Shown: positions 6,667 through 10,927 of the stretch, piece after piece | Layout of the letters: each line of letters opens with the position of its first letter | Position numbering within the stretch: the stretch's first letter is position 1 | DNA from: a virus | Length of the DNA stretch: 10,946 bases | UHGV virus genome: UHGV-0116491 | Strand: one strand, 5' to 3' | Made by a program: the position numbers and the translations under genes | The notes under the pieces: model-generated | What the model saw: the letters and a program-made list of their open reading frames with translations, nothing else | Databases searched by the model: none | Told to the model about the DNA's origin: nothing

Positions 6667-7359
6667 TTAATTGTGTCGCTTAAGGGTCTGTGACTGACTG
6701 ATTAAGACCTTTCCAAAGACCATAAACCGGTGTTCGTTTTCGCTGGTAATTCCCCATTCGCGGTAAATCTGATTATCAGAAATTACCAGCAGTTTATCAG
6801 GTATCATTTGCAGTCGTTTGACGTAAATTTTATCATCAAAACCAAATACATATATACCATCCCCATCAAACTGATTGATACTGATATCAACGAAGATGAG
6901 ATCTCCTGGCTCAATGGTTGGACACATACTGTCCCCACGAACGTTGATAACTTTAATGTGATTTGCTGGTCGTCCACCAAACATCGATACAGCATTATCA
7001 GTTCTGTATTCAATGGCATGAATCACATCAATGACATCACCGCCCTGGATAAGGCCATTTCCCGCACTGGCACTGACATCCAGCATTTCAATACGGAATA
7101 CATCCTTCACCTGCGCAACATCCTCACTAATACTGTTTTTACATACAGTATTACTTTTGAGGTCTGAGGTAAAGAGATCAGCAATATCAACACCTAAGCT
7201 CCTGGCAATATTACTCAGGGCTTGTTCAGTGAATTGTTTCTGCTTACCTGTTTCGAGGCGCGAGATATTCGCCGCATCCACTCCTATTGCTTCAGCGAGA
7301 TCGGCGATTTTCATGTTCTTCGCCTGGCGAAGTTGTCTGACTCGATTTCCTATGTTCAT
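6667..7359 (-). CDS. cI: CI-type prophage repressor: N-terminal XRE-family HTH plus C-terminal S24 (LexA-like) autopeptidase, 230 aa
   Basis: HTH region IADLAEAIGVDAANISRLETG; Ala-Gly cleavage site (SASAGNG); GDSM serine motif and downstream KRL lysine; divergent from a Cro-like gene. Confidence 0.9.
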   Translation of the reverse strand: MNIGNRVRQLRQAKNMKIADLAEAIGVDAANISRLETGKQKQFTEQALSNIARSLGVDIADLFTSDLKSNTVCKNSISEDVAQVKDVFRIEMLDVSASAGNGLIQGGDVIDVIHAIEYRTDNAVSMFGGRPANHIKVINVRGDSMCPTIEPGDLIFVDISINQFDGDGIYVFGFDDKIYVKRLQMIPDKLLVISDNQIYREWGITSENEHRFMVFGKVLISQSQTLKRHN

Positions 7360-7456: not shown

Positions 7457-7717
7457 ATGCAATCACCATTACGGAATGTGCGTAAGGCGCACGGATTTAC
7501 TTTGCAGCATGTTGCTGCGGGCGTTCAGGTCAATCCAGCGACGCTGAGTCGTATTGAAAGACTGGAACAAATTCCATCTATCGATCTTGCAGAACGTCTG
7601 GCCAATTTTTTTAAGGGTGAAATCAGCGAAATGCAGATTCTTTATCCGGCACGTTTTCAATCTAGCCAAAACCAGAATGGGTTTAAACCACAGGAACAGG
7701 AGGTAAGCCGTGGGTAA
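7457..7717 (+). CDS. cro: Cro-like HTH regulator (86 aa)
   Basis: ATG at 7457 with GGAGG 5 nt upstream; HTH region FTLQHVAAGVQVNPATLSRIER; divergent from the repressor gene. Confidence 0.8.
   Translation: MQSPLRNVRKAHGFTLQHVAAGVQVNPATLSRIERLEQIPSIDLAERLANFFKGEISEMQILYPARFQSSQNQNGFKPQEQEVSRG
7469..7669 (-). CDS. This -strand reading frame runs 201 nt (66 codons) without a stop; no product assigned
   Basis: An open frame of 201 nt on the - strand, long enough to be a gene and not just a gap between stop codons; no ribosome-binding site or similarity was checked. Confidence 0.3.
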   Translation of the reverse strand: MARLKTCRIKNLHFADFTLKKIGQTFCKIDRWNLFQSFNTTQRRWIDLNARSNMLQSKSVRLTHIP

Positions 7718-8261
7718 GCATCATTGGAAAGTGGAAAAACAACCCGAGTGGTACGTGAAAGCTGTCAGAAAAACTATCGCGGCATTGCCTAGGGGTTACG
7801 CTGAAGCTGCTGACTGGCTGGATGTAACAGAGAACGCTTTATTCAACCGCCTTCGTGCAGATGGCGATCAGATTTTCCCGCTGGGATGGGCAATGGTTTT
7901 ACAGCGCGCGGCTGGCACTCACTACATTGCGGATGCTGTCGCACAGTCTGCTGGTGGGGTGTTCGTATCGCTTCCTGAAATTGAGGAAGTAGAGAACGCC
8001 GATATAAACCAGCGCCTGCTGGAAGTCATCGAACAGATCGGGAATTACTCAAAGCAGATTCGTTCGGCAATCGAAGATGGGGTCGTGGAGCCACACGAGC
8101 AGACAGCAATTAATGATGAGTTGTATCTGTCAATTTCGAAGCTCCAGGAGCATGCAGCACTGGTCTACAAAATCTTCTGCGCTCCAGAAAAGAGTGACGC
8201 CCGCGAGTGTGCAGCTCCGGGCGTCGTGGCGTTTTGTGTCTGTGGAGAAACTAACGCATGA
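7710..8261 (+). CDS. CII-like phage regulatory protein (YdaT/CP76-like), 183 aa, GTG start
   Basis: GTG at 7710 with GGAGG 6 nt upstream, overlapping the Cro-like stop; position (third gene of the rightward operon) and size match CII/YdaT-type proteins; family assignment from memory. Confidence 0.65.
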   Translation: MGKHHWKVEKQPEWYVKAVRKTIAALPRGYAEAADWLDVTENALFNRLRADGDQIFPLGWAMVLQRAAGTHYIADAVAQSAGGVFVSLPEIEEVENADINQRLLEVIEQIGNYSKQIRSAIEDGVVEPHEQTAINDELYLSISKLQEHAALVYKIFCAPEKSDARECAAPGVVAFCVCGETNA

Positions 8262-8862
8262 ACAGTTTAACGGCAAATAACCGTTTGTCGCAACAGCTGG
8301 TGGTCAGTGTCGCTGAACACCTGTTGTTACGGCATGAATGCAGATTACCAAATCACTTGGCTGTAAGTAACCACAGAGAACTTTACCTGACTGTGGGGGG
8401 CGAGTTGTGCAGGAACTTAACCGCTGGTTTCGTGACGGAAGAGGGCTTTATGTCCATGTTATTCGTTGGGAGCCAGAAACACAGCGCGTTATCTATCTTC
8501 GCAAAGACTACCCGCATGAGTGCTTTAGTCCTTTGTGGAAATTCAGGCGTGATTTTGTTGAGTGTGAAGGACCACCAGCACATTGATTCTGCCATTCCGG
8601 GACGTTACACTGTTCAGGCACCTTATAAAGCGGGTGCCGGGCGTGGAAACCCGGAATTCACCAAAGCGCACAACCGCGCTCTTGCGGTTTTTTTGTGTAA
8701 TGAGCAGCATTACGCCCAAATTATGGTGGGGCGTGCAGGGCCAACTTCGGTTGGGCCGGGTTCTTTGGTGACCGGTATTTCCACCCCTGTACGTCTCACC
8801 ACCAATAAGGTCGTGGAAAGCCTTGGTGGTGAGTTATTAAAAATCACCAAAGAGGCTGCCAT
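8258..8862 (+). CDS. Unresolved ORF that overlaps the CII-like stop (ATGA) and runs in-frame into the Rha gene with no stop; either an N-terminal extension (full ORF 8258..9409, 383 aa) or a frameshifted / dual-coding segment
   Basis: ATG at 8258 with GGAG 10 nt upstream. Codon usage in 8585-8862 is strongly coding-like (all five Arg codons are CGT/CGC; ACC x6, GGT x5). No recognisable domain. Confidence 0.35.
8407..8586 (+). CDS. Alternative -1 frame ORF (59 aa, GTG start) inside the unresolved segment
   Basis: GTG at 8407, 6 nt after a G6 run; product VQELNRWFRDGRGLYVHVIRWEPETQRVIYLRKDYPHECFSPLWKFRRDFVECEGPPAH is protein-like, with 6 of 8 Arg codons CGT/CGC. Just under the ORF-track length threshold. 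Confidence 0.3.
   Translation: MQELNRWFRDGRGLYVHVIRWEPETQRVIYLRKDYPHECFSPLWKFRRDFVECEGPPAH
8672..8694 (+). terminator. Terminator-like hairpin plus T-tract inside the unresolved segment; contains a boxA-like CGCTCTT
   Basis: AACCGC-GCTCTT-GCGGTT followed by T5 (T7 in total); CGCTCTT at 8677-8683. Lies inside a frame that looks coding, so it may be coincidental. Confidence 0.3.
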
Positions 8863-8863
8863 C

Positions 8864-9409
8864 ATGGCTACGATCCCAACCCTCACTCAACCTGAAATTG
8901 CCATCGTTGATGGTCAGGCTGTTACTTCATCCTTGGCTGTTGCCAACTTCTTCTCCAAACGTCATGACGATGTACTGAAAAAGATCCGCACGCTTGAATG
9001 CTCTGCATCATTCACTTCCCGCAATTTTTCGGTGAGTGATTACACCGATTGCACAGGCCGCAAACTACCTTGCTATCAAATAACCCGCGACGGCTTTGCG
9101 TTTCTTGCTATGGGTTTCACGGGTAAACGTGCTGCCCAGTTCAAAGAGGCATACATCAATGCCTTTAACCAGATGGAGAAACAGCTTTCAAATCCCTCTG
9201 TACTGAGCGACGTTGCACATAACGCCAGCGTTCTCTATTCCTACATTTCATCAATTCATCAGGTCTGGCTGCAGCAGCTTTATCCTATGTTGGCAAAAGC
9301 CGAATCTCCGCTGGCTGTTAGCTTGTATGACTATATTAATGATGCTTCGGCGCTGGCCTGCCTCATAAATTTGTCGCTGAATCCTTCAGAGGTAAGGGGG
9401 CGCAAATGA
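8864..9409 (+). CDS. rha: Rha-family phage regulatory protein (181 aa)
   Basis: ATG at 8864 with AGAGG 8 nt upstream; N-terminal region (FFSKRHDDVLKKIRTLECSASFTSRNFSVSDYTDCTGRKLPCYQITRDGFAFLAMGFTGKRAAQFKEAYINAFNQME) matches the Rha domain pattern as I recall it, in its usual N-terminal position. Confidence 0.7.
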   Translation: MATIPTLTQPEIAIVDGQAVTSSLAVANFFSKRHDDVLKKIRTLECSASFTSRNFSVSDYTDCTGRKLPCYQITRDGFAFLAMGFTGKRAAQFKEAYINAFNQMEKQLSNPSVLSDVAHNASVLYSYISSIHQVWLQQLYPMLAKAESPLAVSLYDYINDASALACLINLSLNPSEVRGRK

Positions 9410-9630
9410 TCCGGAATATTTTCAAACGGTTTACCAATCAGACTTTCCGTTGTCCTCGTCCGGGTCAGTGGTACACCACACCTGCAGGACATGTTCTACG
9501 TGTTAGCCTGGTTGACCGTGAATGTCAGAAGGTGATTTGTGAACCGCTGGGCCGTAATTACCGCGTCAGTATGCCGCTTATAGCCTTTCGCTCCGGAAAA
9601 AACATGAAGCATCTCGGAGGTGCTGCATGA
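9406..9630 (+). CDS. Small hypothetical protein (74 aa)
   Basis: ATG overlaps the Rha stop (ATGA) and its own stop overlaps the next ATG (ATGA); consistent with translational coupling. Confidence 0.55.
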   Translation: MIRNIFKRFTNQTFRCPRPGQWYTTPAGHVLRVSLVDRECQKVICEPLGRNYRVSMPLIAFRSGKNMKHLGGAA

Positions 9631-10445
9631 GTATGGAGCTGATGGTTAAAGCGATGAAAATTCGAGTGGGTAATCCATTGCGAAAACTGGTTCTGATCAA
9701 GCTGGCTGATAATGCCAGCGATCAGGGGGAGTGCTGGCCCAGCTACCAGCATATTGCTGACCAGTGCGAGATTAGCAAACGTTCTGTGATGAATCATATT
9801 GCGGCCCTTTGTGAGTCCGGGCTAGTAAAAAAAGTCACTCGGAAAGGTGAAAAAGGTAACTCAAGTAATATCTATCTCCTTCATCTGGATGGTGCAGGAG
9901 ATTCACTAGGGGGTAGTGCAAATAATTCACTATCTGGTGCAGCAAATTCACCAGGTAGTGCAGGAGTTGCACCAGGGGGTAGTGCAGGAGATTCACCCAG
10001 AACCAGTCACTCTTTTGAACCAGTCAAAGAACCAGTCAATGAACCAATAGCTGTTGGTGCATCTGCTGATGAGTCTGTGCGAGTTCGTTCAAACCGACCG
10101 GAATACTCTCCGGAGTTTGAGCAGGCATGGCTGGCATATCCCAAACGTGCTGGTGGCAATTCAAAATCTGCAGCCTTCAAAGCCTGGAAAGCCCGTTTGA
10201 ATGAGGGGGTAAATCCCGAAACCATGCTGGAAGGTGTGAAACGCTATGCGGGCTGGGTATCTGCGATGGGTAACAGCGGCACACAATTTGTGAAACAGGC
10301 TGTCACGTTCTTTGGTCCGGATCGTCATTTCGAAGAATCCTGGGAAGTTCCTGCGGTATCTGCAGCCAGACGTGAGGACCCGTACTTCAAAGCCAGTTAC
10401 GACAACGTGGACTACAGCCAGATCCCGGCAGGATTCAGGGGGTGA
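9627..10445 (+). CDS. Lambda O-like replication initiator (N-terminal HTH), 272 aa
   Basis: N-terminal winged-HTH-like region (LRKLVLIKLADNASDQGECWPSYQHIADQCEISKRSVMNHIAALCESGLV); iteron-like direct repeats embedded mid-gene, as in lambda O. Confidence 0.75.
   Translation: MSMELMVKAMKIRVGNPLRKLVLIKLADNASDQGECWPSYQHIADQCEISKRSVMNHIAALCESGLVKKVTRKGEKGNSSNIYLLHLDGAGDSLGGSANNSLSGAANSPGSAGVAPGGSAGDSPRTSHSFEPVKEPVNEPIAVGASADESVRVRSNRPEYSPEFEQAWLAYPKRAGGNSKSAAFKAWKARLNEGVNPETMLEGVKRYAGWVSAMGNSGTQFVKQAVTFFGPDRHFEESWEVPAVSAARREDPYFKASYDNVDYSQIPAGFRG
9891..10038. repeat. Iteron-like direct repeats with internal dyad symmetry, then 3.5 tandem GAACCAGTCA units; candidate replication origin inside the O-like gene
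   Basis: 16-mers RGTGCAGSARWTKCAC at 9891-9906, 9936-9951, 9957-9972 and 9981-9996 (each GTGCA...TGCAC); GAACCAGTCA at 10000-10009, 10017-10026 and 10029-10038. Confidence 0.6.
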
Positions 10446-10447
10446 TC

Positions 10448-10927
10448 ATGAGCCTTATGAGTGAGATTCAAAAATTCATTGAAAGCAATCCTGGATGTAC
10501 GACCGGTGATATTGCGAACGCGTTTGCATACTTTCCACGTCCCCGTGTACTGAATACGACCAGTAAGTTACGCCAGTGCAGACGTGTCGCTTATCGCAGT
10601 GAAGGCAAAACACACAGGCATTTTTCTCGCAAGGCTGTATTGCCACCTGAGCCGGTGCTGAAACATATGAGTGTGGCCAGTAAAAGCTACGTCGGCACTA
10701 ATGATCAGCGGGTGATTTTGCGCCTGATTCAGCAGGCAGAAGATCTGGAGTCCAGAGGTTTATTCCGCCGGGCTGCAACGGTGTGGATGGAGGCATTCCG
10801 TGAAAGCCACTCCCAGCCAGAGCGAAACAATTTTCTTGCGCGTCGTGAACGGTGTTTACGGAAAAGCAGCAAGCGCGCTGTATCGGGTGATGAGTGGTAT
10901 CTGTCAGGGAATTACGTGGGGGCTTAA
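10448..10927 (+). CDS. PerC-like transcriptional regulator (159 aa)
   Basis: ATG at 10448 with a purine-rich RBS (CAGGGGG) 5 nt upstream; C-terminal LESRGLFRRAATVWMEAF resembles the PerC/ANR RRAA-x-W motif (from memory). Confidence 0.55.
   Translation: MSLMSEIQKFIESNPGCTTGDIANAFAYFPRPRVLNTTSKLRQCRRVAYRSEGKTHRHFSRKAVLPPEPVLKHMSVASKSYVGTNDQRVILRLIQQAEDLESRGLFRRAATVWMEAFRESHSQPERNNFLARRERCLRKSSKRAVSGDEWYLSGNYVGA

Follow-up and report, generated by a model that had tools for sequence, protein, structure and literature searches.

A DUF4222 gene, a P4/P1-type RNA cassette and a translated reading frame probably share one stretch of DNA upstream of Rha in a lambdoid phage

The DNA analysed here, the window, is a stretch of 10,946 nucleotides (nt) of the virus genome UHGV-0116491, and the subject is the segment between its ymfL/CII-like gene and the domain of its Rha gene. 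From the sequence alone this segment had been described as dual-coding or frameshift-prone (the original prediction), of which the first part stands and the second does not. The layout on which this was built is found as described. The ATG at 8258 overlaps the TGA of the CII-like/YmfL gene (ATGA) and is preceded by a Shine-Dalgarno (SD) sequence (GGAG, 8244-8247, 11 nt upstream), and the frame opened there (frame 0) remains open for 383 codons, to 9409. A 59-codon open reading frame (ORF) with a GTG start (8407-8586) lies in the -1 frame, GGGGGGC at 8395-8401 stands in X_XXY_YYZ phase with frame 0 of ATG 8258, and an internal in-frame ATG at 8864 has AGAGG (8851-8855) ahead of it. The feature that had been missed is a pair of RNAs, an isrK-like RNA and a C4 antisense RNA, in 8618-8806. 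Taken together, we consider it likely that a DUF4222 gene, a P4/P1-type RNA cassette, and a translated frame-0 ORF share this single stretch of DNA. The elements are the following:

8258-9409, plus strand: long frame-0 ORF, Eta-like, 383 amino acids (aa), with a YmfM-like N-terminal remnant whose tail is overprinted by DUF4222, a Phage_ASH match (aa 117-213), and the Rha domain
8395-8400, plus strand: G6 run, the SD element of the DUF4222 gene, 6 nt before GTG 8407
8407-8586, plus strand: DUF4222 gene, 59 aa, GTG start, in the -1 frame relative to the long ORF
8583-8611, plus strand: candidate internal sigma-70 promoter, TTGATT (8583-8588), 17 nt, TACACT (8606-8611)
8618-8694, plus strand: isrK / P4 seqA-like RNA (RF01394)
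8719-8806, plus strand: C4 / P4 CI-type antisense RNA (RF01695)
8813-8855, plus strand: downstream targets b2 (8813-8819) and a2 (8844-8854), a2 overlapping the SD AGAGG (8851-8855)
8864-9409, plus strand: nested short Rha gene, 181 aa, Rha domain at about 8924-9181, in a position homologous to P4 kil

The ORF in the -1 frame is an independent gene of the DUF4222 family (Pfam PF13973). Its product matches the Pfam model with 51.1 bits (gathering threshold 27), residues 3-52 falling on model positions 4-51 of 53, and ORFs of the 8407-8586 type are annotated as DUF4222 in many E. coli genomes in RefSeq. For comparison about 130 loci were gathered (9 phages, 37 species genomes, and 80 IMG/VR contigs). 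The aligned first residue is an initiation codon in every homologue among these loci; in most it is ATG, whereas the window type has GTG and e14 and SfII have TTG. Each start is preceded at 6-10 nt by an SD-like purine run, which reads GGGGGG in the window type, GGGGGA in ST64B and a Citrobacter prophage, AAGGAG in e14 and SfII, and GGAGGG or AAGGGG in the others. Because an SD-like motif is aligned to the G6 run of the window in the other lineages, the run is the ribosome-binding site of the DUF4222 gene. The switch between frames noticed in the original prediction is beyond chance, given that the ratio of nonsynonymous to synonymous polymorphism (pN/pS) over 8407-8562 is 0.08 in the -1 frame versus 2.3 in frame 0 (37 window-type sequences). 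In diverse Enterobacteriaceae (21 sequences) the DUF4222 frame has a pN/pS of 0.36, and frame 0 over the same stretch 1.33. The substitutions between the window type and ST64B are nearly all found at third positions of the DUF4222 frame. The gene is thus under strong purifying selection. For the region 8258-8586, truly overlapping genes, one of the explanations offered originally, describe the situation best, with DUF4222 in the -1 frame inside a frame-0 ORF that the homologues keep open. The AlphaFold model of the product is a small beta-barrel (predicted local distance difference test score, pLDDT, 85), and a fold search with this model yielded only generic small beta-barrel matches (KOW/SH3/Tudor-like) with E-values of at least 0.06, from which a function is not assignable. 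NCBIfam contains no model for either DUF4222 or YmfM, and the literature on DUF4222 consists of single passing mentions per paper.

A different relation between the two frames had been suggested by the G-run, namely a programmed -1 frameshift at G_GGG_GGC (8395-8401), which would fuse 46 N-terminal frame-0 codons to the DUF4222 frame and result in a product of about 109 aa, with the junction peptide TVGGRVVQELNR, next to a read-through form. Programmed -1 frameshift sites are known from dnaX, IS3-family transposases, and the phage tail chaperones G/GT, and the locus resembles these in having an in-phase X_XXY_YYZ heptamer with a -1-frame ORF downstream. The heptamer is correctly phased and the -1 frame is open from 8371. 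In addition, the diverse loci are constrained in frame 0 over the N-domain and then in the -1 frame, which is the same pattern as expected of a fusion, and the YmfM-like N-domain and DUF4222 occur together in essentially all diverse loci sampled. However, the locus differs from the known sites in its unconserved heptamer, the missing stimulatory structure, the independent initiation signals, and the stop codon found between run and gene in close relatives. ST64B and the Citrobacter prophage, with DUF4222 identities of 92% and 86%, respectively, have G5 followed by AT (GGGGGAT), by which the heptamer is lost, and ahead of the GTG the -1 frame is closed by a TGA that comes after this run. Therefore, a -1 slip would end there at once and no fusion product could be made. 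The heptamer is specific to the window's lineage: at this position the other lineages carry GGAGGGC, AAGGAGA, or AAGGGGC, and none of them has a slippery heptamer there (about 130 loci). A stop is also found 0-3 nt ahead of the DUF4222 start in four more loci (L015, L016, L046, and L048). The 69 nt after the run (8402-8470) have a minimum free energy of -13.2 kcal/mol (z = +1.0 versus shuffles) and hence fold no better than shuffled sequence, so that no stimulatory RNA structure is found downstream of the run. The start codon and the SD of DUF4222 are conserved everywhere, and the profile search proposed for the candidate products finds the Pfam domain complete inside the 59-aa ORF. The database homologues are stand-alone proteins of about 59 aa and not fusions; the few longer ones were considered as a fusion family and rejected, since they are singletons produced by indels. 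Judged from these sequence comparisons the programmed frameshift is largely refuted, and we regard it as highly improbable.

The G-run could alternatively be a mutational hot spot, at which the gene has been broken by a sequencing error or is switched by phase variation. Homopolymer tracts can vary in length, and IMG/VR contains two contigs with G7, which would fuse both frames, and one with G5. Against this, the exact G6 context is present in at least 120 IMG/VR contigs, almost all of about 95 close loci have G6, phages with 82-99% identity to the window keep the two frames intact, and DUF4222 is independent of the upstream coding sequence. The comparison of run lengths across homologues and contigs, which had been proposed as a check, has thus found G6 to be essentially fixed, and neither an inactivated or phase-varied gene nor a sequencing error is borne out; we give this explanation next to no probability. 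The rare length variants at or beside the run, which may be real or may be homopolymer assembly errors, are L122, L255, and L256 with G7, L257 with G5, and L132 with a 1-nt deletion after the run. The G7 variants would put the frame-0 N-terminus in frame with DUF4222.

Downstream of DUF4222, frame 0 had been described as looking coding again (8585-8862). It is indeed open and matches Pfam Phage_ASH, but the segment is occupied by the two Rfam RNAs. These RNAs account for its protein-like look, and the conservation in this segment is therefore at least largely at the RNA level. The earlier reading as an ordinary protein-coding segment has been superseded by the Rfam matches and the covariation. 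The isrK model scores 67 bits (gathering threshold 50), the C4 model 83.6 bits (gathering threshold 45), and c4-a1b1 has a sub-threshold match at 8605-8657. The isrK-like RNA includes an intrinsic terminator at 8672-8694, which a terminator scan resolves into AACCGC-GCTCTT-GCGGTT (8672-8689) followed by a T run. When the Rfam structure was applied to 12 distinct C4 sequences, one of them P4 CI, all 324 pair cells held standard pairs and 11 pairs had compensatory changes, in comparison to 34-48% pairing in slid controls. The specificity elements of the cassette are, in addition to the downstream targets given above:

8643-8649, plus strand: target b1, within the isrK-like RNA
8658-8666, plus strand: target a1, within the isrK-like RNA
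8760-8771, plus strand: C4 loop a', 12 nt
8778-8784, plus strand: C4 element b'

Across 13 alleles that are less than 93% identical to one another, a' is complementary to a1 (7-12 nt) and to a2 (7-12 nt) of its own allele, and b' to b1 and b2 (6-7 nt), meaning that a' and b' covary with both the upstream (a1/b1) and the downstream (a2/b2) targets. The a2 element abuts or overlaps the SD of the downstream ATG, and the a' duplex extends into this SD in most alleles. The isrK-like RNA and C4 are separated by 24 nt, and C4 and the Rha ATG by 57 nt. At least nine a-types and at least three b-types of C4 specificity can be distinguished. Among otherwise near-identical phages (L001-L133, in the region corresponding to 8640-8860) the a and b types are found in mixed combinations, and ST64B has the b type of the window together with a different a type. 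Such combinations suggest a modular exchange of immunity determinants, and the specificity types should define heteroimmunity groups. The immI operon of P1/P7, with its c4 antisense RNA, the a1b1/a2b2 targets, icd, and ant, was reportedly described by Citron and Schuster in 1990. The window's cassette is like immI in that its antisense RNA belongs to the same Rfam C4 family, a' and b' match upstream as well as downstream targets, the downstream target covers a ribosome-binding site, and specificity alleles should define heteroimmunity. It differs from immI by the absence of icd between C4 and the regulated gene, by the position of a2 directly on the Rha SD, and by the regulated protein, which is Rha and not P1 Ant.

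Phage_ASH (PF10554) is co-extensive with the isrK and C4 RNAs in both the window (8606-8896) and P4 (eta residues 22-146). It is probably constraints on the RNAs, more than a protein domain, that largely account for the conservation captured by this family, and the coincidence of the family with an RNA cassette should caution against calling the segment a protein domain. Upstream of the isrK-like RNA, transcription from the candidate promoter TTGATT-17-TACACT would begin near G8618, where the isrK match has its 5' end, and neither hexamer varies among the homologues that were aligned. In P4, the sequence that lies equally far from the isrK match is TTGCCT-18-TATAGT.

The DUF4222 gene and the RNA cassette lie within a frame that has been kept open. 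In 44 distinct alleles frame 0 does not contain a single stop between the DUF4222 stop and the nested ATG, versus 83 and 172 stops in the other two frames. The spacing between these two points is 271, 274, or 277 nt, so that each indel is a multiple of 3 nt, and none of the 44 alleles has the ATG out of frame. All annotated phage and E. coli loci that were checked (L001-L016), and about 90 of the 96 loci of the window type, have a continuous frame 0 that begins with the ATGA overlap and ends with the downstream gene, which encodes Rha, an "ash family" protein, or Ant. As exceptions, frame 0 is interrupted close to the G-run in L122, L132, and L120 and ends early in L064, and L051 is truncated. 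Across DUF4222, frame 0 is open in 63 of 63 unique coding sequences, although after random synonymous recoding of DUF4222 it stays open in only a fraction of about 0.04-0.06 of the trials per sequence. For example, Val18 and Val28 of DUF4222, both of which precede Ile, are always encoded by GTT or GTC, and GTG and GTA, which would create TGA or TAA in frame 0, are never used.

Whether the product of the frame matters is a different question. In the diverse loci the first approximately 55 frame-0 codons encode a conserved YmfM-type N-domain (pN/pS 0.33 in frame 0 versus about 1.2 in the other frames), of which the window lineage has a shortened remnant. BLASTP searches with the first 105 residues match YmfM-family ORFs with E-values of 1e-15 and 7e-9, about half of the alignment being overprinted by DUF4222. 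The Stx1-phage homologue (L015) lacks the N-domain; its frame-0 ORF has its start directly behind the preceding gene and 17 nt ahead of the ATG of DUF4222. Because the remnant in the window lineage shows no frame-specific constraint and L015 does without the N-domain, the ORF looks conserved for being translated and not for its N-terminal protein sequence. It could be supposed that the 383-aa Rha protein instead has a functional N-terminal domain of about 200 residues, so that the extension would matter as protein and not as a translated conduit. This is favoured by the conservation of the ORF and its annotation as a single protein in many phages, by the alignment of residues 1-105 with the YmfM family, and by the Pfam family Phage_ASH, which covers the middle part. 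However, the pN/pS of the extension is at least 0.6, the N-terminal part is entirely missing in L015, and the variation in the ASH segment coincides exactly with the covarying specificity loops and targets of the RNAs. An extension functioning as a protein domain is therefore very unlikely. From the original suggestion of a long Rha ORF with a novel extension there remains an ORF that is kept open and probably translated, in the sense of P4 eta only, and no sign of a conserved extension domain.

More serious is the possibility that the long ORF is an annotation artefact, and that function is confined to DUF4222, the two RNAs, and the short Rha (8864-9409), while frame 0 upstream is open by descent or by chance and its translation plays no part. 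In favour of this, the window lineage shows no amino-acid constraint in frame 0 over 8258-8586, the Phage_ASH similarity is explicable by RNA conservation, and the Prokaryotic Genome Annotation Pipeline (PGAP) often calls DUF4222 plus a shortened Rha or an "ash" protein instead. Opposed to this are the lack of frame-0 stops in the 44 alleles, the indels in threes, and the nested ATG that is always in frame, as well as the synonymous codon choice of DUF4222, which avoids frame-0 stops, and the ATGA-type coupling at both ends of the ORF. In addition, the homologous eta ORF of P4 has a translation-dependent function according to the passages on eta in PMC10111431. We regard an artefact as unlikely, and, as far as can be judged from the sequences, the long ORF is probably kept open and translated.

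Several points weigh against a translated long ORF with an internal RNA cassette. The N-terminal segment of the window lineage has pN/pS values of 0.60 (frame 0), 1.13, and 0.54, which means no frame-specific constraint. The alleles are related, and the stop-free counts are thus not independent samples. Permutation of the codons within the DUF4222 gene gives values of 0.08-0.70 per sequence, which is weaker support than that from codon-usage recoding; for 13 representatives, which differ at over 30% of the synonymous third positions without being fully independent, the values multiply to 1.5e-7. L122 and L132 have indels near the G-run that break frame 0, so that either an intact frame 0 may be dispensable or these may be assembly errors. 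The candidate promoter is a manual match with 8 of 12 consensus positions, and a promoter scan of 8150-8950 reported nothing at its threshold, the candidate TTGATT-17-TACACT included.

The 3' part of the long ORF encodes a protein of the Rha family, with matches to PF09669 and TIGR02681 of 106.8 and 102.4 bits, respectively, both above cut-off. As had been noticed originally, the domain begins just after the internal methionine, at residue 223 in the Pfam and at residue 214 in the TIGR02681 match, that is about 10-20 residues past M203. The start context of ATG 8864, GAGGCTGCCATCATGGCTAC, is common to P4 kil. No icd gene is found between C4 and Rha, and the window ORF has no Icd-like match, whereas P4 Kil has one. 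This P4 match (eta residues 146-193, the Kil part) is to the NCBIfam model NF033153 ("host cell division inhibitor Icd-like") and links P4 kil to P1 icd.

The closest known counterpart of the whole arrangement is the eta/kil-CI region of P4. The P4 eta ORF encodes 199 aa, begins at ATGATGATG overlapping the stop of ORF88, contains isrK and C4 (CI) matches, and matches Pfam Phage_ASH with residues 22-146, over the RNA cassette. Both loci thus have a long ORF entered by an ATGA overlap, isrK-type (seqA) and C4-type (CI) RNAs inside it, a co-extensive Phage_ASH match, and a nested in-frame gene at GAGGCTGCCATCATGGCTAC. They differ in the nested gene, which is a Rha-family regulator here and the Icd-like Kil in P4, in the YmfM-like segment overprinted by DUF4222 that precedes this part of the ORF in the window, in the genomic setting, which is a lambdoid early-right operon after cro and ymfL here and a satellite in P4, and in the gap between isrK and C4, which is 24 nt here and about 107 nt in P4. 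According to the sections of PMC10111431 that cite Forti et al. 1999, P4 Kil is a truncated Eta, full-length Eta is made only from the upstream promoter and coupled to the upstream gene, termination is prevented when eta is translated from this promoter, and CI is produced from a promoter inside eta. PMC10111431 and PMC4825925 outline the seqA-CI-seqC logic of P4. The P4 RefSeq record still has a historical "cI gene product (AA 1-137)" coding sequence over the CI RNA region. In the isrK-orf45-anrP region of Gifsy-1 the order is similar, with an isrK RNA that has a leaky terminator, a processed C4 homologue (STnc1160), and an antirepressor-like gene, and expression of anrP needs translation of orf45 across the C4 homologue (PMC4825925). 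Gifsy-1 uses a separate 45-codon ORF ending in AUGA on anrP (PMC4825925), whereas the translated frame proposed for the window is fused in frame with Rha and begins about 600 nt upstream.

The elements of the window are present, conserved, and covarying. By analogy to P4, P1, and Gifsy-1, promoter activity, an action of C4 on Rha, and an anti-termination role of frame-0 translation may be added to them. In the lysogen, with the early promoter repressed, the putative internal promoter (about 8583-8611) would give a short, terminated isrK-like RNA, and read-through and processing of this transcript would give C4. The a' and b' elements of C4 would then base-pair with a2/b2, immediately ahead of ATG 8864, so that the ribosome-binding site of Rha would be blocked and the short Rha kept off in the lysogen, and this block would probably cause polarity on the replication genes. 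After induction, ribosomes on the early-right transcript could be relayed from ymfL via ATG 8258 and cross DUF4222, the terminator, C4, and the targets in frame 0, so that the inhibitory structures would be prevented from forming. As has been reported for P4 eta, frame-0 translation would in this way override the RNA control, and the long Rha could be expressed together with the replication genes downstream. DUF4222 would be translated from the same transcript by means of its own weak GTG/G6 signals. The locus would accordingly be a lambdoid case of the P4 eta/kil-CI architecture in which the nested gene is Rha and which is overprinted by DUF4222. The RNA families, DUF4222, Rha, and the eta/kil principle have been known before; what is added here is the out-of-frame DUF4222 gene within a probably translated conduit. 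In addition, a P4/P1-type RNA immunity switch would be placed in the early-right operon of lambdoid phages of the mEp460, ST64B, and Stx-converting types, directly upstream of the Rha regulator and the replication genes.

The ymfL-ymfM-oweE region of the e14 prophage in E. coli K-12 (ymfM = sfiC; bioRxiv 10.1101/2020.11.19.390815) has the same ymfL, the same ATGA-coupled MNSLT... ORF, and a -1-frame DUF4222 with its own SD and start. It differs in its frame-0 ORF, which has 112 codons and ends at the SD of the replication gene, and in having neither an RNA cassette nor Rha. In e14 and SfII, the stop of frame 0 (ymfM) lies on the SD of the replication gene and the DUF4222 stop 8 nt beyond the ATG of this gene. 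The K-12 ymfM gene (b1148, 1203822-1204160), which is annotated as "cell division inhibitor", contains an intact, unannotated DUF4222 ORF in the -1 frame (NC_000913.3, 1204001-1204180; 2502-2681 of L258) with a TTG start and the SD AAGGAG. The frame under constraint in the 3' half of ymfM is, in relatives, that of DUF4222 and not that of ymfM, and PGAP annotates DUF4222 in place of ymfM in other strains. It could be possible, and we put this forward tentatively, that the ymfM-type ORF and DUF4222 are a conserved overprinted pair in Enterobacteriaceae prophages, in which the 3' half of ymfM is selected only to stay open and the protein constraint is in the DUF4222 frame. If so, this half would be a conduit for ribosomes to the next gene or through an RNA cassette, and the 383-codon ORF of the window would be conserved mainly for being translated. 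The SOS-inducible division block assigned to YmfM/SfiC could then be wholly or partly due to the DUF4222 protein. According to the cloning passages of the ymfM preprint (bioRxiv 10.1101/2020.11.19.390815), the whole ymfM ORF was cloned into pBAD24, and a search of its text found no frame-specific control; therefore, the filamentation could come from either product.

Same or near-identical DNA has been annotated inconsistently in E. coli RefSeq genomes (L010, L011, and L012) and in phage 1720a-02 (L004), the annotation being either a single 383-aa Rha, or DUF4222 and a 297-aa Rha whose start corresponds to 8516, or DUF4222 together with an "ash family protein". The isrK-like and C4 RNAs are listed in none of the phage or E. 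coli records inspected. The locus is a hard case for gene callers because a "Rha" ORF of 1.15 kb hides an out-of-frame gene, two RNAs, a candidate internal promoter, a terminator, and a nested start.

The window is of the mEp460-like lambdoid / e14-like prophage type, with 99.8% identity to the mEp460-like type over 8100-9450, and related regions are found in Shiga toxin (Stx)-converting phages, cdtI, and Salmonella ST64B. The neighbouring genes of the immunity and early-right region are:

6667-7359, minus strand: cI-like repressor
7457-7717: cro
7710-8261, plus strand: ymfL / CII-like gene (Pfam Phage_CP76), TGA overlapping the ATG of the long ORF (ATGA)
9406-9630: 74-codon ORF
9627-10445: replication-protein gene
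10442-10927: further ORF

From ymfL on, these genes and the long ORF form an unbroken series of 4-nt stop/start overlaps (ATGA or GTGA), 7710-8261, 8258-9409, 9406-9630, 9627-10445, and 10442-10927. Far upstream, at about 936-1008 of the window, there is a strong terminator-like hairpin, AAAACCCGCC-TGAA-GGCGGGTTTT, with T and A runs at its flanks, which has several weak, sub-threshold partial Rfam matches on both strands (rnk_pseudo, P9, sroH, and RNAI).

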